Positions 94-64,000 of a stretch of 64,000 nucleotides of DNA are shown piece by piece. The stretch comes from Desulfurobacteriaceae bacterium (GTDB lineage: Bacteria > Aquificota > Aquificia > Desulfurobacteriales > Desulfurobacteriaceae), in NCBI GenBank assembly GCA_027075275.1, contig JALTBO010000083.1:4522-68521 (forward strand), read 5' to 3'. Made by a program: the position numbers and the translations under genes. The number at the start of each line of letters is the position of its first letter. Position 1 is the first letter of the stretch. A model generated the notes under the pieces. It made no database searches, had not been told where the DNA came from, and was given only the letters and a program-made list of their open reading frames with translations.

Positions 94-1166
94 CTCGTCC
101 CGGTGTTAATTGAGAGTTTCTCTTTTATTGCACCGTAGTAACCGACTGCGGAAAGAGCGCCAAAAATAATATCGGGAAGAAGAGAAAGAGCCGGATTTCC
201 CAATTTAACGGCAACTTTCTTTGACACCGTATAGAGGATGTAATAGAGCACAATCAGCAGAAGACCAAAAGCTATACCGGTTCCCATACTTCCTCTTGGA
301 AGTGATACTGCTACCGAAAAGGCAAGTATTCCAACTATTAGCGGAGAAAGAGATAGGCAGACTCTTTTAAGGAGCTCCGTTCTTCCTTCCACACTGTTAT
401 CTCGTATTAACTGAAATAGTGTTTTGTATTTCTCTGCACTGAACTTCTCCTTCTTTGAAAACCTGTAGAGCTCCACTGTGTAATCCTTGAATTTCAGCAG
501 CTTGAACTCTTCCGGCTTCTTCCAATTTATCAGCTGGGCGCTGCCGTTGTATATGTCAAGGAAAACCGTATCTCCTACAGTTCTTAAAGTTCCCTTTTTC
601 CCGAAAATTGTCAGTAGTTCACTCTTTTTCTGAAGGGAGACCATAAAGTTCTCTATGAGACCTTTCTCTGGAAATACCTTCTCAACGTAGAAGGTTACTC
701 CTGGGAAGTTTGATGAGAAGTTCTTGGGAGAAATGCTCATTGTTATTTTCTTCTTCAGGAGTTTCTCAAGCTCTTTTTTCATTGCAACGTTACTCTCAGG
801 AGCCAGAAACATTAAGGAGTAGAAAGAAAAGAGGGAAAACAGCAAACCTATAAAGAAGATAGGAACAGATATCTGTTTTACACTGATCCCGCACGATTTC
901 AGTGCCACCAGTTCGTTGTTGTTTCCCATCTGTATAAACAGAACAATAACAGATATGACAAAAGAGATAGGAATTACTATTCCGAAAAAAGCTGGTAGTC
1001 CTTTTAGAAGAACTGAAAGAAAGTCAAAGAAGGAAACTCCCTGACCTAAAACGGTTTCTGCTATTGTAGATGCTCTATCTACAAGAATTACAAAGAGAAA
1101 CAGGAGAAAGGAGATGAAAACAAGTTTTAGGAGTTCTCCAGAGATGTACCTGTATAAAGTTTTCAT
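87..1166 (-). CDS. lptF: LPS export ABC permease LptF/LptG family
   Basis: MKTLYRYI start, 'NELVALKSCGIS' motif, 3 TM + periplasmic domain + 3 TM layout. Confidence 0.85.
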   Translation of the reverse strand: MKTLYRYISGELLKLVFISFLLFLFVILVDRASTIAETVLGQGVSFFDFLSVLLKGLPAFFGIVIPISFVISVIVLFIQMGNNNELVALKSCGISVKQISVPIFFIGLLFSLFSFYSLMFLAPESNVAMKKELEKLLKKKITMSISPKNFSSNFPGVTFYVEKVFPEKGLIENFMVSLQKKSELLTIFGKKGTLRTVGDTVFLDIYNGSAQLINWKKPEEFKLLKFKDYTVELYRFSKKEKFSAEKYKTLFQLIRDNSVEGRTELLKRVCLSLSPLIVGILAFSVAVSLPRGSMGTGIAFGLLLIVLYYILYTVSKKVAVKLGNPALSLLPDIIFGALSAVGYYGAIKEKLSINTGTRW

Positions 1167-2050
1167 TTCTCCTTCTTAACGTATTTGTACCAGTCAACAA
1201 CTATTGCACTCGCAATAAAAATAGAGGAGTAAGTTCCGACTGTTATTCCAACTAACAGAACAAATGCAAAGTCGTTTATAACGCCTCCTCCAAACAGGTA
1301 GAGACAGAGAACAACGAACAGGGTTGTAAGAGAGGTGATTACCGTTCTTGAGAGTGTCTGGTTTATACTGTCGTTTACTATTTCCTCAAAGGGTTTGCTC
1401 CTTAACAGTACTTTCATGTTTTCTCTGATTCTGTCGTAAACAACTATAGTGTCGTTTATTGAATAACCTATTACCGTTAAAAGGGCTGCAATTACCGGAA
1501 GGCTGAACTCCCTTCCTACAGACATAAATATTCCTGTTGTTGCAAGGGCATCGTGTATTAGAGCCAGAACGGCACCGAAGGCGAATATAGGTTCAAACCG
1601 CCAGGCAACGTAGATGAGTATTCCTATTAGAGCGTAGATTATTGCCATTATCCCTTTTTCTCTCAGCTCTTTTCCAACTGTTGGGCCTATCATTTCCACT
1701 TTTCTTATCTCAACCTTGCCGTCAAACTTCTCTTTCAGGACTTTCCGTATTATCTTTACCGTTTTGTTTGGGTCTTTGTCTGCAGGTGCTTTTATCATAA
1801 AGTCGTTTTTCCCTTCTCCCTCAACGTTCTGAACCAAGACACCTTCAACTTTTCCTTTAAACAGTTCCCTCAGGGTTCCCGTATTTATTTGAGGTTCCTC
1901 TACTCTAACCTCAACTAAAACTCCTCCTGTAAAGTCAATTCCGAACTTTGGGCCTTTTATGAGAGCTCCGTAAACCCAGCTTCCGATTATGAGAGTCAGT
2001 GAAAGCAAGTAAGCCCAATATCTGTTTCCTATGAAGTCAAACTTTTTCAT
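1163..2050 (-). CDS. secF: Protein translocase subunit SecF
   Basis: GIDFTGG, GPTVGKEL, GYSINDTIVVYDRIRE motifs. Confidence 0.97.
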   Translation of the reverse strand: MKKFDFIGNRYWAYLLSLTLIIGSWVYGALIKGPKFGIDFTGGVLVEVRVEEPQINTGTLRELFKGKVEGVLVQNVEGEGKNDFMIKAPADKDPNKTVKIIRKVLKEKFDGKVEIRKVEMIGPTVGKELREKGIMAIIYALIGILIYVAWRFEPIFAFGAVLALIHDALATTGIFMSVGREFSLPVIAALLTVIGYSINDTIVVYDRIRENMKVLLRSKPFEEIVNDSINQTLSRTVITSLTTLFVVLCLYLFGGGVINDFAFVLLVGITVGTYSSIFIASAIVVDWYKYVKKEK

Positions 2051-2058
2051 CTCTGCTC

Positions 2059-15156: not shown

Positions 15157-16251
15157 GTGTTTGATATAGCTGATGATCTGTTTCAGGGTCCGGTCATAAA
15201 AGTTATAGGAGTTGGTGGAGGCGGGGGAAACGCCGTTTCAAGAATGTACGAGATGGGAATTGAGGGAATAGACTTTGTAGCTGTAAATACCGATGCCCAG
15301 GTGCTTTCTAAACTTCCTATCCCTATAAAGGTTCAGATAGGGGAAAAGCTGACCAAAGGCCTTGGAGCCGGCGGAAAACCTGAGATTGGAGAGCAGGCAG
15401 CCCTTGAAGATGAGCCCAAGATAAGGGAGGTGTTAGAAGGCGCAGATATGGTTTTTATAACCGCAGGAATGGGAGGAGGAACGGGAACGGGAGCAGCTCC
15501 GATAGTTGCCAAGATAGCTAAGGACATGGGTATACTGACCGTAGGGGTTGTAACGAGGCCTTTTGACTTTGAGGGAAGGCGCCGTCAGGAGTATGCAGAG
15601 GCAGGGATCAGAAGGCTAAAAGAGTTTGTTGATACCCTTATGGTTATTCCTAACCAGAAACTTCTTACAATTGCTCCAAAAGATATGAACATACTAAATG
15701 CTTTTAAGTTGGCCGATAACGTTCTCTATCAGGCAGTTAAGGGAATAACTGAAGTGATAACAAAACCCGGGCTCATAAACCTTGACTTTGCCGACGTTAA
15801 AACCGTTATGCACAGCGGTGGTTATGCCCTTATCGGGATAGGAGAGGCAAGTGGGGAGGACAGAGCTCTCACGGCAGCGCGAAAGGCTATAGACAATCCG
15901 CTCCTTGAGAATGTTCAGGTGGAAGGTGCCAGCAGGATACTTGTCAACATCAGCGGAGGTTCAGACCTGACCCTTGATGAGGCCTACGCTGCAGCCGGAT
16001 TGATAAAGGAGAGGGCGAAGAGAGACGATACAAACTTCTTCTTCGGAGTTACGGTAGATAACGAACTTGAAGGTTCTATTCAGGTAACTGTTATAGCAAC
16101 AGGGTTTGATGAGAAGGGGAGACCCATTGTTTCCGGCTTCTCTGAAATAGCGAGGAGCTCCAAGGCCAGCACTCCGTTTCAGACACAAGAAAGCGTTGAA
16201 ATGCTTGACATAGATGTGTCTGAACTCCTCAAAGAACTTAAAGAAGAGTAG
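15157..16251 (+). CDS. ftsZ: Cell division protein FtsZ
   Basis: [22 protein letters not shown]. Confidence 0.99.
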
Positions 16252-16269
16252 TTTATATAAATAAGGCTG

Positions 16270-16300
16270 GGGGAGCTCCCGCAGCTCCCCGCTCTTTTCT
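16270..16300 (+). terminator. Probable intrinsic terminator after ftsZ
   Basis: GGGGAGCT-cccgc-AGCTCCCC 8-bp stem followed by GCTCTTTTCT. Confidence 0.65.
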
Positions 16301-19360: not shown

Positions 19361-19361
19361 G

Positions 19362-34271: not shown

Positions 34272-36101
34272 ATGTGTGGAATTGTAGGCTACATCGGGAA
34301 AGATAACGCAAAAGATGTAATCATAGACGGTTTAAAGAGGCTTGAATACAGAGGTTACGACTCGGCCGGTATTGCGCTTATTGTTGATAGTGAGATTTTT
34401 ACTTATAAAAAGCAGGGGAAAATAAGGAATATTGAGATAGAGCTCCGTAAGGTTCCTGTTTACTCAAACATCGGAATCGGTCATACCCGTTGGGCAACCC
34501 ACGGAAAACCGGATGATATAAACGCCCATCCTCACCTTGACTGCACTAAGAAGATTGCCCTGGTTCACAACGGAATAGTTGAGAACTACGCAGAGCTCCG
34601 CCGGGAGCTCCAGACTAAAGGGCACACCTTTCTATCTCAAACCGATACAGAAGTTATTGTTCACCTTATTGAGGAAGAGTTAAAGACCTCTCCCGACTTC
34701 TTCACCGCTTTTCTCTCGGCTGTAAAACGGCTTCAGGGTTCTTACGCCATAGCAGTTATAACACTTCATCAGCCCGATACTATCTTCGTTGCAAGGAAGG
34801 ACAGCCCCCTTGTTATAGGTCTCGGAGAGGGCGAAAACTTTGTTGCCTCAGATGTTCCAGCTTTTCTCTCTTATACGAACAGGGTCATCTTCCTTGACGA
34901 TTTTGAAGTTGCAACTGTTAATTCAAACAGCGTTTCAGTTTTTAACACTGATGGAGAAAGGGTAGAGAAAAAGGTGGTAACAGTTCCCTGGTCTCTTTCC
35001 CAGGCTGAAAAAGCGGGATACAAACATTTTATGCTGAAAGAGATAAACGAACAGCCAAGAGCTGTTGCCGACACAATTAGCGGTAATCTCAGCTGGTTCC
35101 GTGGAGAATCCTATCTTGAAGGTATAGACCCTAACTCTTTTAGCAGAATTCAGATAGTTGCCTGTGGAACCTCTTACCATGCAGGACTTATAGCCAAATT
35201 CTACTTAGAGAACTTTGCGAAAGTTCCCACCGAGGTTGACTACGCTTCTGAATACCGCTACAGAGAGCCGATAGTTGATGAAAATACTCTCGTTATCTCA
35301 ATAACCCAGTCTGGTGAAACGGCAGATACTCTGGCTGCAATGAGACTTGCCAGAGAAAAGGGGGCAAAACTTTTAACTATCTGCAACGTCATCGGGTCAA
35401 CGGCAACGAGGGAGGCCGATACGGTTATCTACACCTACGCAGGACCCGAAATAAGCGTTGCCTCAACAAAAGCTTTTACCACTCAGCTTACGGCCCTTTT
35501 CCTCTTTACTCTTTATCTTTCAAGGGAAAGGAGAGCTCTTGCTTCTGATGAAGTAGATAGCTACCTGAAAGAGCTCTTGGAGCTCCCATCAAAAATAGAA
35601 GCCTTCCTGAACCTTGAGAGGGAAAAAGAGGTTGTTAAGAAAATAGCCCTTGAGTTCTATAGGGCTAAAGATGCCCTTTACCTTGGAAGACACGTTAACT
35701 ACCCCATTGCCCTTGAGGGAGCCTTAAAGCTGAAAGAGATCTCCTACATTCACGCAGAAGGTTATCCGGCCGGTGAGATGAAACACGGCCCCATTGCCCT
35801 AATTGATGAGAATATTCCTGTTGTAGTTGTGGCAACCAGAGGAAAGGTTTTAGACAAGATCGTTTCAAACGTTGAGGAGGTAAAGGCAAGAAAGGGAAGG
35901 GTAATAGCTGTAACGAACCCTTCTGTTAAAAAAATCGGAGAGCTTGCCGAATTTCTAATAGAAGTTCCTGAGGTTAACGAGTACCTCTCACCTATTGTTA
36001 ACGTTGTTCCCCTGCAGCTTTTTGCCTATTATATCGCTGACTTTTTAGGTTACGACGTTGACCAGCCGAGAAACCTGGCAAAGAGCGTTACTGTAGAGTA
36101 G
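34272..36101 (+). CDS. glmS: Glutamine--fructose-6-phosphate aminotransferase
   Basis: MCGIVG, GHTRWATHG, PRNLAKSVTVE. Confidence 0.99.
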   Translation: MCGIVGYIGKDNAKDVIIDGLKRLEYRGYDSAGIALIVDSEIFTYKKQGKIRNIEIELRKVPVYSNIGIGHTRWATHGKPDDINAHPHLDCTKKIALVHNGIVENYAELRRELQTKGHTFLSQTDTEVIVHLIEEELKTSPDFFTAFLSAVKRLQGSYAIAVITLHQPDTIFVARKDSPLVIGLGEGENFVASDVPAFLSYTNRVIFLDDFEVATVNSNSVSVFNTDGERVEKKVVTVPWSLSQAEKAGYKHFMLKEINEQPRAVADTISGNLSWFRGESYLEGIDPNSFSRIQIVACGTSYHAGLIAKFYLENFAKVPTEVDYASEYRYREPIVDENTLVISITQSGETADTLAAMRLAREKGAKLLTICNVIGSTATREADTVIYTYAGPEISVASTKAFTTQLTALFLFTLYLSRERRALASDEVDSYLKELLELPSKIEAFLNLEREKEVVKKIALEFYRAKDALYLGRHVNYPIALEGALKLKEISYIHAEGYPAGEMKHGPIALIDENIPVVVVATRGKVLDKIVSNVEEVKARKGRVIAVTNPSVKKIGELAEFLIEVPEVNEYLSPIVNVVPLQLFAYYIADFLGYDVDQPRNLAKSVTVE

Positions 36102-37026: not shown

Positions 37027-37045
37027 TATAATTGTTAACTAACAA
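37027..37045 (+). promoter_or_regulatory. -10 box with adjacent dyad upstream of first TetR gene
   Basis: TATAAT at 37027-37032 abutting TTGTTA-AC-TAACAA at 37032-37045. Confidence 0.5.
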
Positions 37046-37064
37046 ACGAGCTCGGGGGGAAAGG

Positions 37065-37631: not shown

Positions 37632-37660
37632 AGTCTTCAGATTTTCTCCGGTTTTGAGTG

Positions 37661-37716
37661 TTGAATTCCCTTTTACAGGGAGTTATACTCTTTTATGTAA
37701 GTAACTGCTTACATAA
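37661..37716 (+). promoter_or_regulatory. Sigma70-type promoter with overlapping operator palindrome
   Basis: TTGAAT(37661)-17 nt-TATACT(37684); TTATGTAAG-N6-CTTACATAA at 37693-37716 spans the predicted +1. Confidence 0.75.
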
Positions 37717-37727
37717 CCGGAGGGAAG

Positions 37728-38288
37728 TTGACTGCCAGAGAGCGAATTCTTGAGGCAGCCTACAGCTGTTTCTCCCGTAAGGGTTATTTTGGGACTACCA
37801 CGAGGGAAATATCTCAGGCTGCCGGCGTTTCAGAGGTTACCCTCTTCAGGCTTTTTGGTAGTAAGAAGGAGCTTTTCCGGGAAGTTTTAATTAATTACTC
37901 AATAATTCCTGATATCAGAGCAATTTCCGTTCCTGAAGGCTCGGGAGAGGAGGTTCTGATTGATATCGGTTTGAAGCTTTTCTTCTCTTTAAGGGAGAAG
38001 AAAGAGTTCCTGAAAATCCTCCTTTCGGAGGTTACCGGTTTAACCGAAGAGGTTGAGGAGGTTTACTCCCGGTTTGTTGAGACCCTTGAGGAACTCCTCG
38101 GGAGAGTTTTCTCCTCTGCCCTCTCCCTTTCAGAGGGTGAGAGCAGAACAAAGGTAAAGGTTTTCAGATCTGCCCTTTTCGGTTTTTTTATCTCTGAGGA
38201 GGTGTTTCAGGGAAGGGAGCTCCCCTACGAAGATGTGATCCGTTTTGTAAAGTCCCTTTCTGCAGCTGTTTCAGGAGGTAGAGGTTGA
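37728..38288 (+). CDS. TetR/AcrR family regulator
   Basis: 'ILEAAYSCFSRKGY...ISQAAGVSEVTLFRLFGSKKEL'; TTG start after GGAGGG. Confidence 0.92.
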   Translation: MTARERILEAAYSCFSRKGYFGTTTREISQAAGVSEVTLFRLFGSKKELFREVLINYSIIPDIRAISVPEGSGEEVLIDIGLKLFFSLREKKEFLKILLSEVTGLTEEVEEVYSRFVETLEELLGRVFSSALSLSEGESRTKVKVFRSALFGFFISEEVFQGRELPYEDVIRFVKSLSAAVSGGRG

Positions 38289-41130: not shown

Positions 41131-42355
41131 AAAACTTATTTCACTTGCCCTTGAAAATTCAAAAGAGATTCAGAAAGTAAGGGCTGATTGTAAGATCTCT
41201 GACCTTCTCTACAGGGAGGCCGTTTCCTCATACTTTCCAACTGTTAACCTCTTTTACAGGAAAACAAATCTGACAGACGTTCCAACCTACTCCTTCTCCC
41301 TTCCTGGTTTTCCATCTGCAACCTTTTCACTCTTTAACAGCAACTACTACCAGTTTGGCGTAAACCTTTCACAGCCAATATTTACAGGAGGGCAGATAAC
41401 CTTCTCGGTTAGACTGAGAGAGAAACAGAAGAGGGCCTCTTACTACTTCTTTAAAGAGACGGTTAACAGAGTCGTTTTATCAGTTAAGGAAGACTACTAC
41501 AACCTTTTAAAGGCAAAGGCCTCAGTTGAAACTGCAAAAGCCTACCTGAAAGCGGCTAAGAAACACTACAGAGACGTTAAAGCCTTTTTTGATGAAGGGA
41601 TAGTTCCGCGGAGAGACCTCTTAGAAGCCGAGGTTAAGCTGAGAGACGCAGAGGAGAAGCTCACCTATGCCCGGGCTCTCTACAGGGTAGCCCTTGAGAA
41701 ACTGAAAACAGATGTAGGAGTTCCAGATATTGACTTTGTCCCGGAAGGGGAGCTCCACTTTGAGCCGGTGAAATTTAAACTGGAGGAGCTCCTCAAAACC
41801 GCTTACTCATCAAGGCCTCTCCTCAAATATGCTCGGATGGTTAAAAGGGCTGCCGATGAGGGAGTTAGACTCTCTGCTTCTGCCTTTTCTCCAAAACTGT
41901 TTTTAGGCGTCAACTACCAGAAGACAGACCAGTACCCGGGGGAGACCTACTCCTCAACTGCTGTTTCTTTTACCCTCAACTTTCCCCTCTTTGAAGGTGG
42001 CAAACGGTTCTTTGAGGTTGAAAGGGCCAGAGAGGAGCGCAGAAAGGCTGAGATTTCACTCAAAGACCTGAGGGATAGGGTAAGACTTCAGGTTGTTTCC
42101 GCCTATACAAAACTTTTATCTGCCCAGGCAAGGGTTAAAACTGCCCGTTCAGAGGTTAAGGAAGCAGAAGAACTCCTTCGGGACTCAAGAGAGCGCTACA
42201 GAGAGCACGTTGGAACTTCAACCGAAGTTGTTGACGCCATCGCCTACCTTTACTCTGCCAGAAACTCCCTCAACTCTGCCCTTGCAGACTACAACATTGC
42301 CCTTTCAGAGCTTGAGTTTGCCGTGGGAAAGCCCCTTTTGAGAGGTAGAAAATGA
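41060..42355 (+). CDS. TolC family outer membrane efflux protein
   Basis: Signal peptide, two OEP repeats ('QPIFTGG', 'FPLFEGG'). Confidence 0.9.
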   Translation: MRLLIPVLLLIFLLPVNLRAGEIEKLISLALENSKEIQKVRADCKISDLLYREAVSSYFPTVNLFYRKTNLTDVPTYSFSLPGFPSATFSLFNSNYYQFGVNLSQPIFTGGQITFSVRLREKQKRASYYFFKETVNRVVLSVKEDYYNLLKAKASVETAKAYLKAAKKHYRDVKAFFDEGIVPRRDLLEAEVKLRDAEEKLTYARALYRVALEKLKTDVGVPDIDFVPEGELHFEPVKFKLEELLKTAYSSRPLLKYARMVKRAADEGVRLSASAFSPKLFLGVNYQKTDQYPGETYSSTAVSFTLNFPLFEGGKRFFEVERAREERRKAEISLKDLRDRVRLQVVSAYTKLLSAQARVKTARSEVKEAEELLRDSRERYREHVGTSTEVVDAIAYLYSARNSLNSALADYNIALSELEFAVGKPLLRGRK

Positions 42356-43524
42356 GGTTTTTTATCCTTTTTATAACAGTTTCCCTTTTCCTTTCAGGCT
42401 GTTTTAACCAGAGAAATGGAAATACCCTCTACATAAACGGCCGGATTGAGGGAGACCAGTACGACGTTGGAACAAAATACGGCGGTAAGATTGTTGCTGT
42501 TTACCACGATGAGGGGGATAATGTCAGGAAGGGGGAGCTCCTTGCCCGGATAGACTCCTCTGAGGTGAGGGCGGAGCTCTCTCAGGCTGAAGCAAACTAT
42601 AGAGCTTCCCTCTCTGCTGTGAGCGTTAAAGAGAAAGAACTTTCATTCTACAAGGAAAAACTTTCTGCCCTGAAGTTTAAACTCTCAGAGCTCAGAAAGG
42701 GAGTGGATATAGGAATAGAAACTGCAAAAGACCGCCTGAAGGCTGCCCGTTATCGTCTTCTCTCTGCAGAGGCCGGCTATCGTAAAGCAAAGGCTGCCTA
42801 TGAAAAGGCCAGAAAAGACTACATTAGGTTTAAAAACCTCTATGCCCGCAGGGTAATTTCAGAGAGCAGGTTTGACGCCGTAAAACTTGCTTATCAATCT
42901 GCAAAATCTGACCTTCAGTCTGCCAGGGAGCTCCTCAACACTGCAAAGGTCAACCTGTCGGCTTCAGAGAAGGAGCTCCAGCTTGCAGAAAACAGGAAAA
43001 AAGAGATTCTCTCTTTAGAGAGGGAAGTTAAAGCCCTTGAAGAAACGGTTGCTGCAAAGGAGAGGGAGGTTTCCCTATACAGAGAAAGGGCTGCTGCTGC
43101 TCGCTCGCTGGTTAAAAAGGTTGAATCAATCCTTAACAACCTGAAGATAACCTCTCCGGTAGATGGAACTGTTACTGAGAAATTGGTTGAACCGGGAGAG
43201 GTTGTGGCTCCCGGTCAGAGGCTCTTTACCCTCTACAACCTTGATAACCTTTACTTTGAAGGTTACGTTCCTGAAACAGAGGTTGGACTCATTCATATAG
43301 GGCAGAAAGGGTACATAACCGTTGATGCCTATCCCGGCAGAAAGTTCCCCGTTGTTCTTACTTACATCTCCTCCCGTGCAGAGTTTACCCCTAAGGATGT
43401 TCAGACCAGAGAGGAAAGGGTAAAAGAGGTCTTTAAGGTAAAACTGAAACTCCTTGAGAACCCCAACCACGTTCTAAAACCGGGAATGCCTGCAGACTGC
43501 TACATTCCTTTAGGTGGAAAATGA
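42352..43524 (+). CDS. YbhG-like HlyD family adaptor (lipoprotein-like N-terminus)
   Basis: 'LSGC' lipobox, 'NGRIEG', 'AEFTPKDVQT', 'KPGMPAD'. Confidence 0.9.
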   Translation: MRFFILFITVSLFLSGCFNQRNGNTLYINGRIEGDQYDVGTKYGGKIVAVYHDEGDNVRKGELLARIDSSEVRAELSQAEANYRASLSAVSVKEKELSFYKEKLSALKFKLSELRKGVDIGIETAKDRLKAARYRLLSAEAGYRKAKAAYEKARKDYIRFKNLYARRVISESRFDAVKLAYQSAKSDLQSARELLNTAKVNLSASEKELQLAENRKKEILSLEREVKALEETVAAKEREVSLYRERAAAARSLVKKVESILNNLKITSPVDGTVTEKLVEPGEVVAPGQRLFTLYNLDNLYFEGYVPETEVGLIHIGQKGYITVDAYPGRKFPVVLTYISSRAEFTPKDVQTREERVKEVFKVKLKLLENPNHVLKPGMPADCYIPLGGK

Positions 43525-45377
43525 AGCCCGTTGAGTGTGAAAACCTCAGGATTACTTACAGGAGAGGAAGAACCGTTGCGGTTGATAACCTTTCATTTAC
43601 TGTAGGCTCAGGAGATATCTTTATCTTCATAGGGCCAGACGGAGCCGGGAAGTCCTCAACTTTTAAGGCTGTTTGTGGAGTTCTCACCTACGATTCAGGG
43701 AAACTCCTTACCTTTGGCGTTGACCCAAACGACGAAAAAGCCTTTGAGCCTGTAAAGGAAAGAATTTCCTTTATGCCCCAGGGGCTTGGGCAGAACCTCT
43801 ACAAAAAACTCTCTGTTGAGGAGAACGTTGACTTCTTTGCCGACCTTTACGGCGTTACGGGAGAGGAGAGGGAGAAAAGGAAGAAACTCCTTTTGAAAAC
43901 CACAGGTCTCTGGGAGTTCAGGGATCGGCCTGCCGGGAAGCTCTCCGGCGGAATGATGCAGAAGCTTTCCCTGTGCTGTATACTGATTCACAGGCCGGAG
44001 TTCCTCGTTTTAGACGAGCCTACAACCGGCGTTGATCCGGTTTCCCGTAGGGAGATCTGGAGACTTCTTTACTCCTTCAACCGTGAAGGTCAGACGGTTC
44101 TTGTTTCAACTTCCTACTTAGACGAGGCCGAGAGGGGGACGGAGCTCCTCCTGATGAAAGACGGTAAAAAGGTAGTTTCAGGCTCCTACGAAGATGTTGT
44201 TAGAACGGAATCTCAGGCCTTTCTCATAACCTCAGACGACCCCTACGCCGTTTACCAGAAACTCTGGGATATAACGAACACCCCAAGGCTTAAGGGGAAT
44301 ACTGTCAGAGTCCTTATTCCCCCCGAAAAACTTAAGAATTTCAGGGAGCTCCAGAAGAAAATGAGCTTCTCTGCTCAGCCCGTTGAACCGGACCTTGAAG
44401 ACCTATTCGTTGAGAAAGTTGGGCTCAGGAGAGTTGTTCTCCCTCCTATCTTTAAGCCTAAAACAGAAGTTCCAGAGAACGCCGTTGTTGTTGAGAATGT
44501 TGTTAAGAAGTTCGGAGACTTTACCGCCGTTGACGGAGTTTCCTTCACAGTTAAGAGGGGAGAAATTTTCGGCCTTCTGGGTCCAAACGGTGCAGGGAAA
44601 ACCACACTAATAAAAACCGTCTTAGGTCTCTACAGTCCAACTTCAGGGAGAATTTCTGTTGCTGGAAAGCCCGTTGGAAAAGATGTTAAGAAACTCATAG
44701 GCTACACCTCCCAGAAGTTCTCCCTCTACTACGACCTGACGGTTCTTGAAAACCTCGTCTACTGGGGAAGCGTTTACGGGGTTTCCCCTTCTACTGTTAA
44801 ATCGTTAGTCTCTCAGGTGGCTCCGGTTTTTGAGCTTCAGGAGTTTCTAAACAGACAGGTTGCGGAGCTCCCCTTAGGGATAAAACAGAGGGTTGCACTC
44901 CTCTCTGCCCTCCTCCACTCCCCGCCGATTCTCTTCTTAGACGAGCCAACCTCCGGCGTTGATCCCGTTGAGAGGGACGTCTTCTGGCAGGTTATAAGGG
45001 AGCTCTCTAAAAAGTTCGGCGTAACCGTTCTCATTACAACCCACTACATGGACGAGGCCGAATACTGCGACAGGGTTCTGCTGATGAACAGGGGAAAGGC
45101 CGTTGCCTTAGGCTCTCCCCGTGAGCTAAAGGAGGAGCTGAGAAAGGAAATGGGAAACGCCTACCTCATCTACACCGATGAGCCCTTTGACCTTGAGGAG
45201 AAGCTGAAAAGTCTGGGCTTTAAAACCGCTCTCTTTGGAAGGAAGGTAAAGGTTTACTCGTTAAAACCCATAACGGAAGACTATCTCAAAGAGTTGGGAG
45301 TTCCGTTTAAAAAGCTCAAACCTTCTTATATAACAATGGAAGACGTTTTTGTTTTCAGGGTTTTAAGTGATGTTTAG
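43521..45377 (+). CDS. ABC ATP-binding protein with two NBDs (YbhF-like)
   Basis: GPDGAGKS and GPNGAGKT Walker A motifs, LSGG, two LDEPT motifs. Confidence 0.92.
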   Translation: MKPVECENLRITYRRGRTVAVDNLSFTVGSGDIFIFIGPDGAGKSSTFKAVCGVLTYDSGKLLTFGVDPNDEKAFEPVKERISFMPQGLGQNLYKKLSVEENVDFFADLYGVTGEEREKRKKLLLKTTGLWEFRDRPAGKLSGGMMQKLSLCCILIHRPEFLVLDEPTTGVDPVSRREIWRLLYSFNREGQTVLVSTSYLDEAERGTELLLMKDGKKVVSGSYEDVVRTESQAFLITSDDPYAVYQKLWDITNTPRLKGNTVRVLIPPEKLKNFRELQKKMSFSAQPVEPDLEDLFVEKVGLRRVVLPPIFKPKTEVPENAVVVENVVKKFGDFTAVDGVSFTVKRGEIFGLLGPNGAGKTTLIKTVLGLYSPTSGRISVAGKPVGKDVKKLIGYTSQKFSLYYDLTVLENLVYWGSVYGVSPSTVKSLVSQVAPVFELQEFLNRQVAELPLGIKQRVALLSALLHSPPILFLDEPTSGVDPVERDVFWQVIRELSKKFGVTVLITTHYMDEAEYCDRVLLMNRGKAVALGSPRELKEELRKEMGNAYLIYTDEPFDLEEKLKSLGFKTALFGRKVKVYSLKPITEDYLKELGVPFKKLKPSYITMEDVFVFRVLSDV

Positions 45378-46485
45378 AGTAAAAAGGGTCTTCTCAATTG
45401 TCAAAAAGGAGATAAGGGAACTCCTCAGAGATAAAATCTCCCTCATTACTGTCCTTGCCGTTCCCCTCTCTATGATGCTTGTTTTTGGATACGGCCTTAA
45501 ACTTGAGATAAAACACGTTCCCCTTGGAGTTCTTGACTACGATAACTCTTACTTCTCACGGGAAATCCTCTCTAAACTTATATCAAACGGAGAGTATTTC
45601 TACGTTAAGCGCTACTTCTCATCTGAAAAGGAGCTTGACAGAGCTCTCACTTTTGGTGAGGTTAGGGGAGCTCTCCTGTTCCCTTTCAACTTTGAAAAGG
45701 ACTTCAAAAAGGGTCAGGGCCGTTTCCAGCTTTTGATTGACGGAACTTTCCCCTACAGGGCAGAGGTTATAAAGAGCTACGTTAACGCCGTTGTTTCCCT
45801 TGAGAACCTTAACCTTATGGAGAAAAAAGGCCTGAAACTTCCCGTTTCAGTTAAGCCCCGTTACTGGTTCAACGAGTCTCTGAACCAGGACTACGTTGTT
45901 GCCGTTGGAACTCTGGCAGTTGTTTTAGCAATAGCTCCTGCCGTTTTTTCTGCACTGCTGATAGTTAAGGAGAAGGAGTCTGGATCAATCTATAACGTTT
46001 ACGTTTCATCAATAGGAAAGTTTGAATACCTTTTGGGAAAACTGCTAACAGGATTTTTAGTCTCTTCATTTAATCTGGCCGTTCTTTTTGTACTTCTCTT
46101 TTTCCTGTTTCAGGTTCCCCTTAAAGGGAGCTTTCTCCTTCTGATCCTCTCATCACTCCTCTTTATTTCTGTTTCAACTGCATTTGGCCTTCTCCTTTCA
46201 GTCTTCTTTACCTCTCAGGCTGCAGCTTTCATAGGAACTGTTATCCTTACTGTTGTTCCCTCTATCCTCTACACCGGCTACCTGACTCCTGTTTCCTCCA
46301 TGGGAAAAGGAGCTCTCCTTACTGCTCATCTGATCCCAACCTTCTACTATATGAGACTTCTGAAGAACATCTACTTCAAGGCCTCGCCTTTTAAATATCT
46401 GTTTCCAGACCTCTTAACCCTTATGGCCTTTTTCTTCGTTCTCTTTTCGCTCAACTATCTGTTCTTTAAAAAGAGGGAGAGATGA
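45370..46485 (+). CDS. ABC-2 permease (YbhS-like)
   Basis: 'KKEIRELLRD', 'YWFNESL', 'VKEKESGS'. Confidence 0.88.
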   Translation: MFRVKRVFSIVKKEIRELLRDKISLITVLAVPLSMMLVFGYGLKLEIKHVPLGVLDYDNSYFSREILSKLISNGEYFYVKRYFSSEKELDRALTFGEVRGALLFPFNFEKDFKKGQGRFQLLIDGTFPYRAEVIKSYVNAVVSLENLNLMEKKGLKLPVSVKPRYWFNESLNQDYVVAVGTLAVVLAIAPAVFSALLIVKEKESGSIYNVYVSSIGKFEYLLGKLLTGFLVSSFNLAVLFVLLFFLFQVPLKGSFLLLILSSLLFISVSTAFGLLLSVFFTSQAAAFIGTVILTVVPSILYTGYLTPVSSMGKGALLTAHLIPTFYYMRLLKNIYFKASPFKYLFPDLLTLMAFFFVLFSLNYLFFKKRER

Positions 46486-47567
46486 AATTCTTAATCCTTC
46501 TCTACAAAGAGGTGGTTCAATTCCTGAGGAACAGAGGACTTCTCATTTTTGCCGTTTACGCCTTCACTTTAGACATCTACCTTGCTGCAACGGGAATAGA
46601 CCTTACACTGAAAAACGCCTCCTTCTACGCCCAGGACTTTGACAACTCCTACACTTCAAGGGAGCTCCTCTCAAAATTTCCAGAACCTTACTTCCACTTT
46701 AAGGGCTACCTTCTCTCAGATAAATCTGTTGAAGACGTTCTCTTAAAAGACAGAGCTGTTGGTGTTATTAGAATTCCCTTCAACTTTGAGAAGAGGCTCA
46801 AAAAGGGAGACAGAACAGAAGTTGCCGTCATAGTTAACGGAGCGGAAGTCTCTGCCAGCTACCTTTTCTCAGCATACGCCACTCAGATAATCTACAACTT
46901 CATTACGGGGCAGTTCTTTAAACCACCTGTAGAGGTTGTTCCCAGAATCTACTTCAACCAGAACGCCTCAAGTAAACTTTTCATGGCCTACTCGGAGCTC
47001 CTCACAGTAATAACCCTCTTTCTCCTCCTCCTTCCAGCTGCTGCCGTTGTCCTTGAAAAGGAGAGGGGAAACGTTGAGATGCTTACAGTCTCCCCGCTTC
47101 CAAATATCGTCTTCATGGTTGCAAAGTCCGTTGCCATGGGGCTTATAGTTCTTCTCTTTACCGCTTTTGCTCTGTTTTTTACAGTTGAAAAGGTTGTAGC
47201 AGTTCCTTTTAGAGGAAATGAGTTGGACTTTCTCCTTCTAACTCTCCTCTACGTTTTTACAGCTTCTGGCCTCTCAATGTTTATAGCCTCCCTTTCAGAG
47301 AATATGCTCCAGGTCTCCCAGCTTACAATTCTCCTCCTTATTCCAATCCTCTACCTCTCTGGAAACTGGACTCCCATTGAGGCTATGCCAAAACTTCTCC
47401 AGTGGCTCTCAGTCCTCTCACCCCTCAAGTACTACATAGACGGAGCTCTCGCTATAGCTATCAAGGGGGTTCCTCTGAAAGAGCTCACTTCCGACATATT
47501 GGCCCTTACCTTGCAGGGGGGAGCTCTCTTTGCCCTCGGTAACTACTTCATGGTGAGGAGAATTTAG
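46482..47567 (+). CDS. ABC-2 permease (YbhR-like)
   Basis: 'KEVVQFLRN', 'EKERGNVEML', 'LSGNWTPIEAMP'. Confidence 0.88.
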   Translation: MKFLILLYKEVVQFLRNRGLLIFAVYAFTLDIYLAATGIDLTLKNASFYAQDFDNSYTSRELLSKFPEPYFHFKGYLLSDKSVEDVLLKDRAVGVIRIPFNFEKRLKKGDRTEVAVIVNGAEVSASYLFSAYATQIIYNFITGQFFKPPVEVVPRIYFNQNASSKLFMAYSELLTVITLFLLLLPAAAVVLEKERGNVEMLTVSPLPNIVFMVAKSVAMGLIVLLFTAFALFFTVEKVVAVPFRGNELDFLLLTLLYVFTASGLSMFIASLSENMLQVSQLTILLLIPILYLSGNWTPIEAMPKLLQWLSVLSPLKYYIDGALAIAIKGVPLKELTSDILALTLQGGALFALGNYFMVRRI

Positions 47568-55554: not shown

Positions 55555-56741
55555 GGGGTTTCCTCTTGAAAGACCTCATCCTCTCGCTCCTTCACAATAA
55601 ACTGAGAACCCTCTTTGCCCTTCTTGGAGTTCTCTTTGGTGTTGTCTCCTTGGTTCTCATTGTTGCGGCGATTGAGGGGAGCTCCCTCCTTGCAAACAGG
55701 GTTATAGAGAAGTTGGGTCCCGATTCCGTTCTTATTATTTCAGGCTCAATAAAGAAAGGACCCAGAAGCGGTTTTCAGAACCTTACACTAGAAGACGTTA
55801 GGGAAATTGAAAAACTTGAGGGAATTTTTGCCCTCACCTACGGCGTCGTTAAACCGATGACAGTTTCGGATATATCAACGTCTAAGTTCACAACGGTTTT
55901 TGGAGTAGGCGAAAACTGGCTCCTTTCTTGGAACTACAGAGTTGAAAAGGGAAGAGGGTTTACAGATTCAGACTTTAAAGACCTTAGAAAAGTTGCTGTT
56001 GTGGGCCACGATGTTGCCGATTTCTTCTGGCCGGGGCAGAGCCCAATCGGGAAAATTATCCTCATCGGAAAAGTTCCGTTCAGAGTAATAGGCCTCTACG
56101 CCAAAAAGGGGAAAACGCCAAACGGCCACAACTTAGACGACAGGGTTTTTATACCTTTTCCCGTTTTTGACAGGTTAGTTGAGAAAACCTACGGCCACAT
56201 CAGTATAATCAGGTTTAGAGTTTTCAATATGAATGAGTACAACCAGATAGTTAAAGAGACCCGCCAGATACTCCTGAAACGCCACAAGCCCGACGACTTT
56301 ATGGTAATTACTCCCGTTGTTGTTAAGAAGTTCCTTTCAATGCTCTCTGCAACCCTTGCCTTTTTCCTGGGAATTGCTTCAACAACAGCTTTAGTTGTCG
56401 GCGGTTTTGTCCTCTCATCTATCTTCTACATCAACATCTACGTTCGCCAGTGGGAGATAGGGTTGAGGAGAGCTCTGGGAGCCACTAAAAAAGACATTCT
56501 GAAGCGGTTTCTCTATGAGGCCGTTCTCATTTCCCTTTTTGCCTCTTTCCTTGGGAACATTCTGGGAGTAGCAGCTATAAAGTTCACTCTGCCCCTCCTG
56601 AAAATTCCCGTTGTTTACCCGGTTAAAGCCTTTGTTGTTGCAACTCTCTTTACGCTTGGAGTCTGCCTCTTCGCCGTCTACTTCCCTGCAAAAAAGGCCG
56701 CCTCTTTTGAACCTGTTTCAGCCCTCCGGAGGAAGGCTTGA
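55551..56741 (+). CDS. ABC permease, MacB/FtsX family
   Basis: 'NKLRTL..LLG', periplasmic domain, '[10 protein letters not shown]'. Confidence 0.9.
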
Positions 56742-57931
56742 TGGTGGGAGCTCTCCTTGCCTACGCCAGAGAGAACAAGAAACGGTTTCTCCTCTCTCTC
56801 ATTGGCGTTTCAATTGGTGTTTTTGTTCTTACGCTTATGCTTGGGATAACAAACGCAATGAAGCTCAAGCTTGAAAAGGCCATCGGGAAGATGGGCTCCT
56901 ACGTTCTTGTAGTTCTTCCCGGAGAGGTGAAGAACCTCGGCGGGAGAACGATTCAGCTCTCTTTCTACCCAACTCTAACTTTAGACGATGCAGAGGCTAT
57001 AAAGGAGAAGTGTCCGGACGTTTCGGCTGTTTCCCCTTTTAAGAAGGTTTCTCCAAATGTTCACTACGGCGGAAAGTCAATCTCTGCTTCTGTTAGAGGT
57101 GTCTCCCCTGATTACTTAAAAATCTCTGGCCACTCGCTCCTCTGCGGCAGGTTTCTGACAGATTCAGATATTAATAACATCTCAGAGGTTGCCGTTCTGG
57201 GCTACAACGTAGCAAAAAAACTCTACGGAGAGACCTGCCCTGTAGGAAAAACTATCTACCTCTTTAACGCTCCCTACCGTATTGTTGGCGTTATGGAGAA
57301 GATAGGAACAGACCTCAGCGGGGAAGATCTTGACGACAGGATTTACATTCCTATAACTTCTGCTGTTAAGAGGATCTCAAACGTTGACTACATAGACGGC
57401 ATCTACGTTCTTCCCGTCTCTCCTGAAGCCTTTAAACCTGCTAAAGAAGAAGTTTACTCGCTTCTCCTTAAACGTCACGGGAAAAAAGACTTTTCAGTTA
57501 ACTCTTACGCCGACCTTGTCAACACCCAGAAGCAGGCCATGGAGATATTTACAAAACTCTCTATCATTGTTGCCGTCATCTCCTTCGGCGTTGGTGCCCT
57601 TGGAATTCTGGCCGTTATGACCCTTTCTGTTTACGAAAGGCTTGTTGAAATCGGTGTGAGGAGGGCTTTTGGAGCTCCCCGCTCTGCCATTTTCCTTCAG
57701 TTTCTCCTTGAGTCGGCTCTCCTCTCTCTTACAGGCGCCTCTGCCGGTGTTGTTCTTGCAGTCCTCATAGTTTTCCTTATCTCCTACCTTGCCCACTGGC
57801 CCGTTTACCTTCCCTTTAGAGAGGCTTTCCTCTCCTTTTCCCTCTCCTTCCTGATAGGCCTTCTCTCTGGGATCTACCCTGCGGTAAGAGCTCTCTCTTT
57901 TGAGCCTAAAGAGATCCTTAGAGAGGAATAA
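56738..57931 (+). CDS. ABC permease, MacB/FtsX family
   Basis: 'SVYERLVEIGVRRAFGA', 'GIYPA'. Confidence 0.9.
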   Translation: MMVGALLAYARENKKRFLLSLIGVSIGVFVLTLMLGITNAMKLKLEKAIGKMGSYVLVVLPGEVKNLGGRTIQLSFYPTLTLDDAEAIKEKCPDVSAVSPFKKVSPNVHYGGKSISASVRGVSPDYLKISGHSLLCGRFLTDSDINNISEVAVLGYNVAKKLYGETCPVGKTIYLFNAPYRIVGVMEKIGTDLSGEDLDDRIYIPITSAVKRISNVDYIDGIYVLPVSPEAFKPAKEEVYSLLLKRHGKKDFSVNSYADLVNTQKQAMEIFTKLSIIVAVISFGVGALGILAVMTLSVYERLVEIGVRRAFGAPRSAIFLQFLLESALLSLTGASAGVVLAVLIVFLISYLAHWPVYLPFREAFLSFSLSFLIGLLSGIYPAVRALSFEPKEILREE

Positions 57932-58024: not shown

Positions 58025-58219
58025 GTGAAGCGTTTAAACAAACTGGCCTTCTTTGATTATCCGGATTTTCTTGTCTTTGTTGACAGGTTTTGCCCTTTGT
58101 GTGGAGCTCCCGTCTCCGTAAAAATCGTAAACGGAATGGAGGTTGAAACCTGTCTTAACCCGGAGTGCCCTTACCTGCAGGTTAGAGAAAAGGAGGAAAG
58201 TTCCAGGAACAGCCATTAG
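58025..58219 (+). CDS. Small putative zinc-ribbon protein
   Basis: CPLCG...CLNPECPY; strong AGGAGG RBS; fills the intergenic gap. Confidence 0.6.
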   Translation: MKRLNKLAFFDYPDFLVFVDRFCPLCGAPVSVKIVNGMEVETCLNPECPYLQVREKEESSRNSH

Positions 58220-58233: not shown

Positions 58234-59691
58234 CTAAACAGTTTCCGGTGGAGCTCCCTCTTTACTCTCGTTATTCTCGTTTTCTGAAAACAGCGCCTCT
58301 ATAAACTCCTCCGGGTCAAACTTCCTTAAATCTTCTATCCTCTCTCCTACTCCTACAAACTTTATAGGAATTTTCAGGTCGTTGCAGATTGCTACAACGA
58401 TTCCTCCCTTTGCCGTTCCGTCAAGCTTTGTCAGGGCTATCCCTGTAACGTCTGTAATCTCCTTAAAGGCCTTTGCCTGAGAGATGGCGTTCTGACCTGT
58501 GTTTGCGTCCAGAACTAAGAGAATCTCTGCCGGCTGGCCGGGAAACTCCCTTCCAATAACCTTCTTTATCTTGTGGATCTCCTTCATTAACCTCTCTTTG
58601 TTGTGGAGCCTTCCTGCCGTGTCAACGATCAGAACATCCTCTCCCTTTGCCTTTATACTCTGAATTGCGTCAAATACAACTGCCGCCGGGTCGGTTCCCT
58701 CCTGTCCCTTAACTATCCTGACTCCTGCCCTCTCTGCCCACACCTCAAGCTGTTCAATTGCCGCAGCCCTGAACGTGTCTGCTGCCGCCAGAACTACAGA
58801 GAGGCCAGAGTCTTTTAACTGTTTTGCCAGTTTCCCTATGGTTGTTGTCTTTCCAACTCCGTTTACGCCCAGAACCAAAATTACAGAGGGCTTTTCCGTT
58901 AGGTTCAGCTCTCCGTTGCACTGCCTGAGGAGCTCCTTCAACCTCTCTTTCAGAATCTTAAGGAGCTGGTCGGAGCTCTTTATCTTCCTCTTCTTCGCCT
59001 CGTTCCTCAAGTACTCAATCAGCTCTAAAGTTGTACTTACTCCAACGTCTGCAAGGATTAACCTCTCCTCAAGCTCCTCAAACAGACTCTCGTCAACCTT
59101 TCTCCCTGCAAAGTCTGAAAGCCCTAAGGCATCTCTTGTCTTCTTCAGCCCTTCCTTAAAGCTCTTTAAAATCTTTGAACCTGTTAATCCTAACTTCTCC
59201 TCAACCTCTCTCTTCTTAACTGTAAATTCCAGCTTGTAGTTTTCTGGAACTTTCTCCTCAACCTCTTTCAGGGCTTTCAGTGCAAGGTCGTAAAGCCCCT
59301 CCTTTATGTAGAGGTTCGCTATGTGGTAGTTTGCAAGGAATGAGAGCTTCTCGTTCTGGCTGTTCCTTGCAACGTCGTAGAGATTCCTGGCCTTCTGTAA
59401 GTTCCCCTTGTACTCCTCAATTAACCCTTTAAAGAAAGAGGCGTAGTCCTTTCCGAGTTCTTTCTCTAACTTCTCCGTGTAGGGCTCAAACTCCCTGTAT
59501 ATTGCAAGGTTCCTTACTATCTTAGCCGCTTCCTCTACAAGCTCTCCTCTGCTGTATATAAGGGCGTTTGCCACTGCCTCGGGAGCTCTCCTCTCGCTCT
59601 CCTCTGCCAGCTTCAGCCACTTCTCCGGCTGGTTCGGGTTTTCTCTGAGCTCCTCCTCTAAACCCTTCTTCTTCCTGAAAAAGCCGAACAT
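58234..59691 (-). CDS. ftsY: Signal recognition particle receptor FtsY with TPR-like N-terminal domain
   Basis: GVNGVGKTT, DTFRAAA, DTAGR, TKLDGTAKGG; start at MFGFF. Confidence 0.96.
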   Translation of the reverse strand: MFGFFRKKKGLEEELRENPNQPEKWLKLAEESERRAPEAVANALIYSRGELVEEAAKIVRNLAIYREFEPYTEKLEKELGKDYASFFKGLIEEYKGNLQKARNLYDVARNSQNEKLSFLANYHIANLYIKEGLYDLALKALKEVEEKVPENYKLEFTVKKREVEEKLGLTGSKILKSFKEGLKKTRDALGLSDFAGRKVDESLFEELEERLILADVGVSTTLELIEYLRNEAKKRKIKSSDQLLKILKERLKELLRQCNGELNLTEKPSVILVLGVNGVGKTTTIGKLAKQLKDSGLSVVLAAADTFRAAAIEQLEVWAERAGVRIVKGQEGTDPAAVVFDAIQSIKAKGEDVLIVDTAGRLHNKERLMKEIHKIKKVIGREFPGQPAEILLVLDANTGQNAISQAKAFKEITDVTGIALTKLDGTAKGGIVVAICNDLKIPIKFVGVGERIEDLRKFDPEEFIEALFSENENNESKEGAPPETV

Positions 59692-59728
59692 TTCTACTCC
59701 TTCCACATTTTTTGAGAAAAACTATCTG

Positions 59729-62162: not shown

Positions 62163-62398
62163 TACTCAACCTCTAAATCCCAGTAGATTTCCGGCCTGTG
62201 TCCTAATCTCTCCTCAAAGCTTCCGGCTATCTCAATGATCTTGTCTGCAACTGTTCTCTTAACATCTTTACTCTCTGCAACCACTTTTAAACAGGCGTCT
62301 ATGTATATCTCGCATACGGGAACGACCTCAACTCTTTTAACTCCCGGTATTTCCTCAACTTCCTCAACTATCTTCTTAACGAAGTCCATCTCCTCCAT
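62162..62398 (-). CDS. Small acidic hypothetical protein
   Basis: 78-aa ORF tightly coupled to both neighbours; AGGAG RBS. Confidence 0.65.
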   Translation of the reverse strand: MEEMDFVKKIVEEVEEIPGVKRVEVVPVCEIYIDACLKVVAESKDVKRTVADKIIEIAGSFEERLGHRPEIYWDLEVE

Positions 62399-62401
62399 CT
62401 T

Positions 62402-64000
62402 CTACTCCTTTTTCAGAACAACTATCTGATTCCTGAGGGTTTTAACTGTTGTGTTAAAGAGCTCCCTCAAGTCCTGATACTCATCAACAGGAACGACGTT
62501 CTTGTTGAGAACCATCTGTGAGTGGAAGTGGAGCTCCCTTCCATTAACTTCCCACTTGATTGAGAAGCTACCAACTCTGTTCCTGAAACTGTAGTTTTCA
62601 GGCTTCAGGTAGAGTGAATACCCTGCTGGCAGTTCTAACTTTACGTCTGAAACCTTTTCCATCTTATAGCCAACAACGTAAGGATACCTTCTGTTCTTTG
62701 CCGCAACTAAACTCACGAGCCTGCTGTAGTCTGGAGCCGGAAACTTGGCAAGTAGGTAGTGGGAGGTTATTGTTCCGTAGTTCCTGTCCTTTCCCTCAAT
62801 CTTAATCCATACGTCTTTCTCGTTTAAGTCCCTGTAGTTTGAAATCTCATACTTCTCAACGTCAAACCCGGGGGAGACCTTTGCGGCAAGCTCCTCAACG
62901 TGCCTTTTAATCTGTTCAGTGGGAGCTCCCGTAAGCCTTGCCCTCTCTATAACTCCGTAAATTCCTGTATAGTCAAACTTAAACTTACCTTCTAAGCTTC
63001 CAAACGGCTTAAGAGTGAAATTACCGCTGAATCCTTCAACGTTAGCATCTGGCGGAAACACAGGTGTTTCGCCAACTGTTCCTTTCTCCTTCTTAACATC
63101 AACAATCAGAACTTTTCTTCCCTGGTCGCTCGGAGGTAGATAGCCGAAGGGAACAAAGTCTGAAGTTGTGTCCATAAAGAACCACTTCCCCTTCCACTTA
63201 ACTGCCGCTATTTCGTGGTTGAACGCCGTGGGCATCGGCATTTCGGGATCCATGTTTGCCCTGCTGAGTGTAGGAATGAGAACAGGATATCCCTTGACAC
63301 CTATAACTTTCAGCATTGCAATCAGCAGAGTTGCGTGGTCTTTGCAGTCTCCATATCTGTTCCTGAGAATTTCTGATGCCCTGTGGGGTTTATACCCGTT
63401 TATCCCGAACTCCATTCCCACATACCTTATGTTCTGGGCAACAAAGTTGTAGATAGCCCTAATTTTCTCTTCTTCTGTCTTTTTTCCCTTAACAACTTTC
63501 AGTGTGGTTTCCTTTACAAACTTGTCCGGCTTAACGGCCTCTTTAGCAAGGTCGGAATACCACTTTGCAACTTCCTGCCAGCTCTTTAGAGATGTTATGG
63601 CAACCCTTTTTGCTACTTCTTCAAACGGGGGCATGTTAGGTTCTTTAACTATCGGCGGAACGTTTTTCACTACCCAGGAGAGCTCCACAAACTTCCCTAA
63701 GTCCTTTCTTACTGGACGAGACTCCTTTTCACTCATGTTGTACGTTTTGAACCTGTAATACTTTCCCTTTGGAATCAGCACTTTAAACACTGCTTCTTTA
63801 ACGGGATACTCATCCTGCAGGAAATCCGTTTCCCAGAACTGGTTTTTCATGTAGGGTTTAACGGTTTTCAGAACATAGGCATACTTGATTACAGAGCCGA
63901 TTCTCACTCCCGGCATTGAGATAGTTCTGTACTTGAGGTCTGAGTAGATTGGAGCCTCTGATACAAACGGCGGATAAACGGTATTTATTGCCCTTTTCCC
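62402..64000 (-). CDS. DUF3857/transglutaminase-like domain protein (5' part outside window)
   Basis: 'YGDCKDHATLL', 'FNH', 'FMDTT' triad; frame is open to the window edge. Confidence 0.85.
   Translation of the reverse strand, partial: GKRAINTVYPPFVSEAPIYSDLKYRTISMPGVRIGSVIKYAYVLKTVKPYMKNQFWETDFLQDEYPVKEAVFKVLIPKGKYYRFKTYNMSEKESRPVRKDLGKFVELSWVVKNVPPIVKEPNMPPFEEVAKRVAITSLKSWQEVAKWYSDLAKEAVKPDKFVKETTLKVVKGKKTEEEKIRAIYNFVAQNIRYVGMEFGINGYKPHRASEILRNRYGDCKDHATLLIAMLKVIGVKGYPVLIPTLSRANMDPEMPMPTAFNHEIAAVKWKGKWFFMDTTSDFVPFGYLPPSDQGRKVLIVDVKKEKGTVGETPVFPPDANVEGFSGNFTLKPFGSLEGKFKFDYTGIYGVIERARLTGAPTEQIKRHVEELAAKVSPGFDVEKYEISNYRDLNEKDVWIKIEGKDRNYGTITSHYLLAKFPAPDYSRLVSLVAAKNRRYPYVVGYKMEKVSDVKLELPAGYSLYLKPENYSFRNRVGSFSIKWEVNGRELHFHSQMVLNKNVVPVDEYQDLRELFNTTVKTLRNQIVVLKKE

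Follow-up and report, generated by a model that had tools for sequence, protein, structure and literature searches.

A purine-pyrimidine octamer iterated genome-wide in part of the Desulfurobacteriaceae, and its possible role as a DNA-uptake signal

Described iterated motifs and the Desulfurobacteriaceae word

Genome-wide selected sequence motifs at a density near one per kilobase are known from few groups of organisms. The motif described here is the octamer GGAGCTCC, with its hexamer core GAGCTC, which is dispersed through a 64,000-nucleotide stretch of DNA from a Desulfurobacteriaceae bacterium (the window) and through the rest of its genome (G000, a 1.48-Mb assembly of 136 contigs, 87% complete). 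Its closest described counterparts are the DNA uptake sequences (DUS) of Neisseriaceae, read by ComP, the uptake signal sequences (USS) of Pasteurellaceae, with ComN/PpdA as predicted reader, and the highly iterated palindrome HIP1 (GCGATCGC, with alternates such as GGGATCCC), whose function is still unsettled after three decades. The hallmarks of uptake sequences given in the available portions of three accounts (PMC2817400, PMC3630211, 10.1101/2025.10.24.684340) are doubled peptides, location at less-conserved residues, hairpin copies at gene ends, absence from foreign DNA, dialects, lack of strand bias and random spacing. HIP1-rich genomes are those in which an octamer palindrome exceeds 0.2/kb with an observed/expected ratio (O/E) of at least 16, as set out by Xu et al. 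in the sections accessible (PMC5861425). The motif is real, selected, lineage-restricted and apparently undescribed; no description of the word, or of any iterated motif in Desulfurobacteriaceae, was found in the literature searched, with most subscription papers and REBASE lying outside its scope.

The motif behaves like DUS and USS, reaches the statistical levels of HIP1 and belongs to neither family. As with DUS and USS, there are about a thousand or more copies with random spacing, no strand bias and lineage dialects, the motif-encoded peptides are doubled and the residues involved poorly conserved, some copies are of the terminator type, foreign-looking DNA is motif-free, and competence genes are present. 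It differs from them in its unrelated sequence, its shorter and more degenerate core, its lower fold-enrichment and its phylum; the DUS and USS consensus is a non-palindrome of 9-12 bp, whereas the main word is a palindrome and only the sister variants are asymmetric. No ComP-family match above cut-off was found, in a search whose controls were also blank. By the measure of Xu et al. the octamer stands at 0.95/kb with an O/E of 16.0 in G000, while the O/E is 18.5 in the congeneric genome G004 and 4-13 in the other motif-bearing groups. It resembles HIP1 in being an octamer palindrome of ~0.9/kb (HIP1, 0.2-2.7/kb) and O/E 16 that is found in all frames and between genes, with conserved sites and codons and with lineage variants. 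Unlike HIP1, it has another sequence (GCGATCGC occurs once in 1.48 Mb, and hexamer palindromes with a GATC core are below expectation), its variants are non-palindromic, its enrichment only reaches the low end of the values for HIP1, it occupies part of one family, and no associated methyltransferase was found.

The palindromic R...Y form and a proposed link to uptake of self DNA are shared with the methylation-dependent discrimination (CtsM, with the site RAATTY) of Campylobacter jejuni, although a conserved solitary methyltransferase is required there and none was found here. Chi and the FtsK-orienting polar sequences (KOPS) are also short, over-represented, lineage-specific octamers, but these are strand-polarised; the main word is palindromic, and the variant RGAGCTTC of the family member G026 is unpolarised (351 forward vs 349 reverse, summed over 22 tiles, most of them balanced).

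The octamer as the unit of enrichment

The window contains 154 copies of GAGCTC, one per 416 bp, in agreement with the approximately 150 counted by hand in an earlier note on this DNA, together with 133 of RGAGCTCY (one per 481 bp) and 56 of GGAGCTCC. They are dispersed over positions 371..63685, with octamer starts from 371 to 62922; the spacing of about 420 bp that the note gave for RGAGCTCY is thus true of the hexamer and not of the longer form. Genome-wide there are 3,018, 2,623 and 1,361 copies of the three words respectively, the last corresponding to 0.92/kb. The note's expectation of about 12 hexamers in the window holds for base composition (12.3; an order-2 Markov model gives 37.1), but because GAG CTC encodes Glu-Leu in common codons the fair excess is ~3-fold, not 12-fold, and it is the octamer that carries the strong signal.

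Genes in G000 were called using a custom script based on open reading frames (ORFs) and codon scores, which yielded 1,408 genes, and 1,306 of these were subjected to synonymous-codon shuffles that preserve each protein and its codon usage. In the window genes (1,000 shuffles) the hexamer occurs 145 times vs 42.2 +/- 5.9 (maximum 67) and the octamer 49 times vs 4.7 +/- 2.1 (maximum 13); the hexamer is present in 57 of the 64 called genes and on both strands, as the note had stated for nearly every gene, with copies distributed 95/46/6 among the frames. Across the 1,306 genes GGAGCTCC is found 1184 times vs 105 in shuffles (O/E 11.2), ranking first among 62,935 octamers, while GAGCTC is just 3.0-fold enriched and the best octamer palindrome without an AGCT core has an O/E of only 3.4. 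The true unit of enrichment is the octamer, not the hexamer, and on both tests that the note had proposed against its own candidate, codon-preserving shuffling and the behavior of unrelated words, the enrichment persists. AGCT with other flanks is not enriched (0.5-1.3), compared to 3.0 with G..C flanks. At the outer base G is preferred over A (GG|CC 12, mixed 3-6, AG|CT 3.4), and a weaker purine preference reaches two bases further out, giving a graded profile of 10-12 bp; single-base substitutions at inner positions are mostly at or below expectation, with the exception of G-to-A at position 4.

An artefact of codon pairs or composition, arising from Glu-Leu, from the purine and pyrimidine runs of thermophiles or from TCGA avoidance, is already largely refuted and very improbable. 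Glu-Leu does account for the frame of 1813 of the 2729 genic hexamers in G000, and the octamer excess shrinks under stricter nulls, to 6.1x with codon-plus-one-base words kept and 4.3x with codon-plus-two-base words kept. However, the excess persists even with all of the latter 5-mers preserved, it is present in every frame (observed/shuffled 169/28, 112/4 and 903/74) and greatest in frames other than that of Glu-Leu, and in 37 kb of intergenic DNA GGAGCTCC is again the top word (29 vs 1.5 expected). Purine4-pyrimidine4 words overall are just 1.1x enriched, the GC-matched relatives G022 (2 observed vs 16 expected) and G009 (23 vs 31) have no excess, and other families avoid TCGA yet lack the motif. 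CTCGAG, which the note reported as unseen, is indeed absent from the window, but its core TCGA occurs there only once and is avoided genome-wide, so this palindrome is not a valid control and its absence is uninformative. G000 has hardly any TCGA (176 copies in 1.48 Mb) or CTAG (177) and few CGCG and GCGC, a pattern seen in many relatives; a TaqI-like enzyme that might explain the TCGA scarcity was not found in the assembly, which is 87% complete.

Conservation, distribution and dialects

G000 and G004 were compared as a single congeneric pair, over 248 orthologous genes (239 kb) with a fourfold-site identity of 0.66. A total of 169 of the 228 aligned GGAGCTCC sites are retained in G004, and conservation in the three frames is 0.84/0.61/0.72 vs 0.43/0.34/0.34 for all words. 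For the eight main codons, synonymous conservation is 0.86-0.95 within the motif vs 0.56-0.80 elsewhere, a test that the accessible sections of PMC5861425 describe as having been applied to HIP1. GGAGCTCC is a DNA-level signal preferentially kept between related genomes, genome-wide, and the note's proposal that some process both creates and retains it is borne out by the frame independence, the HIP1-like density and the keeping of sites.

Gain and loss were estimated using a two-state model, which assumes equilibrium and requires intact flanks in both genomes, at sites where the octamer depends on a single synonymous base. The motif base is present in both genomes at 446 transition sites, in one at 40 and in neither at 7, an occupancy of 0.95 vs 0.55 in controls; loss is 0.084 (0.051-0.163) vs 0.34, or ~4-fold slower, and gain is 1.45 (0.94-2.99) vs 0.43, or ~3-fold faster. 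At transversion sites both genomes have the motif base in 514 of 516 cases (514/2/0), compared to 76% in controls. A selection or conversion strength S of ~2.6, by our own arithmetic, predicts that gain changes x2.8 and loss x0.20, and x3.4 and x0.25 are observed. Both rates are as expected of selection or biased gene conversion, and not of a process of gain only or protection only.

We consider it unlikely that the word is functionless and maintained by a neutral, sequence-specific bias of mutation or repair, such as a Vsr-like or mismatch-repair ratchet (Elhai's model). A repair system that both made and protected sites could fit, MutS1 and MutS2 are present (MutS in 28 of 30 genomes), and most single-base near-misses are at or under expectation. 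Gain-only repair is nonetheless disfavored because losses are biased as well as gains: it leaves loss unchanged, whereas here, over the positions and frames alike, loss is cut ~4-fold and hardly any transversion is tolerated. Moreover, the C-to-T and G-to-A variants, which are Vsr's targets for removal, are the commonest variants, and Vsr was found in none of five genomes searched, leaving the note's suggested link to Vsr-like genes without a counterpart. Peptide frequencies are also shifted, which argues against a neutral bias. Peptides that the motif can encode are doubled in G000 (1380 vs 713 expected and 630 for the reversed word), compared to 175 vs 153 expected and 126 reversed in motif-less relatives, and G000 residues under motif sites are less conserved in G026 than others (0.718 vs 0.803). 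The motif shapes proteins as well as DNA.

The distribution of the motif was determined from samples of 13-60 kb per genome, with relatives fetched using glmS (34272..36101, + strand), which also provided the tree and has no part in any mechanism. Of 27 family members, 14 show enrichment of GGAGCTCC (6/6 in g1, 3/3 in g9, 3/4 in g10 and 2/3 in g5); the word is weak in G026 and absent from the samples of the other 12, including G009 and G022. Enrichment was seen in none of 32 genomes outside the family (two from the sister family and 30 from three other families), nor in 80 outgroup loci (1.31 Mb) from other, distant phyla. Single and repeated origins are indistinguishable because the GlmS tree leaves the genera unresolved. 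G022 is depleted of GAGCTC, with 2 copies where 16-21 are expected, and has one copy of GGAGCTC in 80 kb, while related asymmetric words are ~2-fold enriched, a pattern that possibly reflects restriction avoidance or a shifted dialect.

Lineage-specific dialects exist within the family. The word in G026 is the non-palindromic RGAGCTTC, with the 7-mer occurring 633 times vs 196 in 384 kb of coding DNA, and it is enriched in all six frame/strand classes and between genes (19 vs 3.9); GGAGCTTC is found 216 times vs 75 under the strictest null. The presence of this variant led us to reject the idea that G026 is a decayed state of the main word. In genus g7 the word is GGGGATTT, also non-palindromic, with 30 copies vs 2.6 in the 107 kb used for its discovery and 480 and 407 copies in two whole genomes, where the reversed word has 58 and 43; the other 28 genomes have 55-218 vs 19-165 reversed. 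From their likeness and mutual replacement, we infer that the main word, RGAGCTTC and GGGGATTT form one system. The note's term palindrome describes the main word correctly, but the palindromy looks incidental because the variants of two sister lineages are not palindromes.

Candidate words in g6, G022, G009, G012 and G013 are 2-4-fold enriched in samples of 20-140 kb, and we do not claim these as dialects since the folds are weak and the words were picked from many. The AGAGATA-type word of genus g6 (G016-G019), 2-3-fold enriched, is mostly in one frame and so is probably a coding effect. Two other words are mildly enriched in G000 coding DNA, TTGCAA (2.1x) and GGAATTCC (2.2x), the latter sharing the G-G-A-R-Y-T-C-C shape and recurring in several relatives.

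Uptake, chromosomal binding and modification as candidate explanations

Gains and losses of the kind that selection produces, copies indifferent to strand and frame and spaced at random, lineage dialects, peptides at twice the expected frequency, copies in hairpins and scarcity in foreign-looking DNA together match DUS and USS, and by this analogy we give roughly even odds to GGAGCTCC being an uptake or recombination (self-recognition) signal for natural transformation. In this model, DNA with R-G-A-G-C-T-C-Y would be preferred by a putative competence protein at the cell surface or in the periplasm, better-matching fragments would be taken up and recombined more often, and the word would come to fill every position that tolerates it. 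As the reader changed, its preference would move to other words, RGAGCTTC in G026 and GGGGATTT in g7, and the palindromic form would be the one dialect that happens to read alike on both strands.

Several observations weigh against an uptake role. The competence genes, with which the note suggested a correlation, are widespread (ComEC in 27 of 30 genomes, pilins in 30 of 30, DprA in 5 of 5), but they do not discriminate because relatives without a clear motif have them too, and ComEC was not found in the 87% complete G000 assembly. The ComP family (PF16732) is above cut-off in 0 of 30 genomes, with blank search controls, and a single literature search turned up no study of transformation in Desulfurobacteriaceae. 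Described DUS and USS are not palindromes, according to the part of PMC1939737 available. Homology of the g7 word to the main word is putative and based on likeness. The two-state estimate comes from one genome pair, assumes equilibrium and is conditioned on intact flanks; for the hexamer pooled over all flanks loss is reduced and gain is not raised (0.33 vs 0.43), and selection on the site of an intracellular protein yields the same gain and loss arithmetic.

Six pilin-type genes were identified in G000 by sequence search, and no reader was found among the pilin-type candidates followed. The basic pilin-type protein L330:2418-2966, which is present in 22 of 30 genomes and unnamed in databases, was rejected since it resembles a type II secretion pseudopilin and has no sign of DNA binding, and a sub-threshold ComP match on an acidic pilin covers the N-terminal part only. 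At L289:1501-2724 (contig C66) tandem pilin genes are followed by an ABC transporter, with close homologues only in g1 among the loci compared.

An appreciable though smaller probability is assigned to the word being bound by a chromosomal protein of high abundance (a nucleoid organizer, topoisomerase, or repair or recombination loader), under weak per-site selection and with a specificity that drifts by lineage. Such a site would fit the selection-type gain and loss, the purine-flanked, graded profile of 10-12 bp and the finding in G026 that coding and template strands are equally enriched, and the same role is proposed for HIP1 in the accessible text of PMC5861425. However, no candidate protein was found, the lack of strand polarity is against roles of the Chi or KOPS type, and the spacing is Poisson and not regular (coefficient of variation 0.98; 5-kb bins with mean 4.50 and variance 4.34) save for a deficit below 25 bp, with no motif-free domain observed. 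A HIP1-type periodicity of 10-90 kb appears only as a 26-kb period in 422 kb of G026, with a p-value of just 0.03 under a naive uniform null, and G000 is too fragmented for this analysis. Between the two, uptake or recombination is favored.

The third model, in which the site is marked by a solitary methyltransferase or another DNA modification and becomes enriched through uptake or repair that depends on methylation, as for HIP1 or in Campylobacter, is improbable. It draws on the palindromic form and on the density and O/E at the HIP1-rich threshold; the available portions of two papers report that methylated HIP1 improves transformation (10.1101/2024.09.10.611283) and that C. jejuni tells DNA apart by methylation (PMC12378983). 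An enzyme family outside those searched could be involved, and the MT-A70 search was uninformative, its controls being blank. Nevertheless, five informative Pfam families revealed no DNA methyltransferase common to the motif-rich genomes: C5 enzymes are in 6 of 30 genomes but in 0/7 of g1 and 0/3 of g9, the N4/N6, D12 and Eco57I families are sporadic, and type I-like genes are strong in 2 of 5. G005 (99% complete, 1.0 octamer/kb) has no C5, N4/N6 or D12 match and only a type I-like M gene. The N4/N6 enzyme of G000 (L001:1417-3161, contig C98), its one clear DNA methyltransferase, located between hisZ-like and unknown genes, adjoins a DpnII-family endonuclease, with which it likely forms a GATC restriction-modification system, and the Eco57I and D12 matches in G000 were set aside as RNA methyltransferase-like and RsmD-like proteins. 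The graded, non-palindromic variants also fit poorly with a type II methyltransferase site. The note's candidate of an AGCT/GAGCTC methyltransferase coupled to biased repair is not supported, on three counts: AGCT is unenriched with other flanks, none of the methyltransferase families searched is shared, and losses are biased too. The motif is not HIP1 and is probably not methylase-made. The parts available of two papers describe one single-molecule real-time (SMRT) run of a Desulfurobacterium strain, which may or may not carry the word, with 0 motifs at 158x coverage (PMC4752239), and a type III CACC motif in another family member (PMC8259958).

Returning to the uptake reading, we tentatively suggest, at somewhat less than even odds, an independently evolved, methylation-independent uptake-sequence system, which would follow those of Neisseriaceae and Pasteurellaceae as the third and would be the first of a thermophilic, deep-branching phylum, with a reader that drifted through purine-then-pyrimidine dialects (GGAGCTCC, RGAGCTTC, GGGGATTT), one of them palindromic. 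If true, HIP and DUS would be linked as two faces of one transformation-driven process, and an uptake signal would offer a practical handle for genetic tools in Desulfurobacteriaceae. The family forms a natural series among close relatives (strong, moderate, shifted and absent), apparently without a methylase, such that the reader should be findable by covariation and the choice between uptake and nucleoid protein is directly testable.

Intergenic copies of GGAGCTCC in G000 favor gene ends, with six in 5.0 kb of convergent gaps (1.19/kb), 21 in 25.8 kb of tandem gaps (0.81/kb) and two in 10.0 kb of divergent gaps (0.20/kb), and many are centered in GC-rich inverted repeats (hairpins). In the window most copies are inside housekeeping genes (sec, mur, fts, che, glmS, ligA, ftsY, trpD and efflux genes). 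An intergenic copy 3' of ftsZ (15157-16251) is at the mid-point of an imperfect GC-rich inverted repeat at 16266..16285, which is predicted to be a terminator-like hairpin, and another lies at 58103..58110 between a convergent ABC permease gene (56738-57931, + strand) and ftsY (58234-59706, - strand). The site at 16273 is intergenic as the note stated, but that at 37048 is inside an ORF with a TTG start (37032-37631). Three TCGA-rich G000 contigs of 7.6, 10.7 and 3.9 kb have only 0, 1 and 1 hexamers, and recent acquisition or contamination of the bin may account for them; these motif-poor contigs (C57, C26 and C128) include a gene for a primase-polymerase of 1,050 aa, an operon that is hydrogenase/antiporter-like and an NrfD (polysulphide-reductase-like) pair. 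The window also contains, at 37032-47567, a pair of neighboring TetR-family genes and, after them, an efflux cluster that is EmrAB-TolC-like and RbbA-like (ABC).

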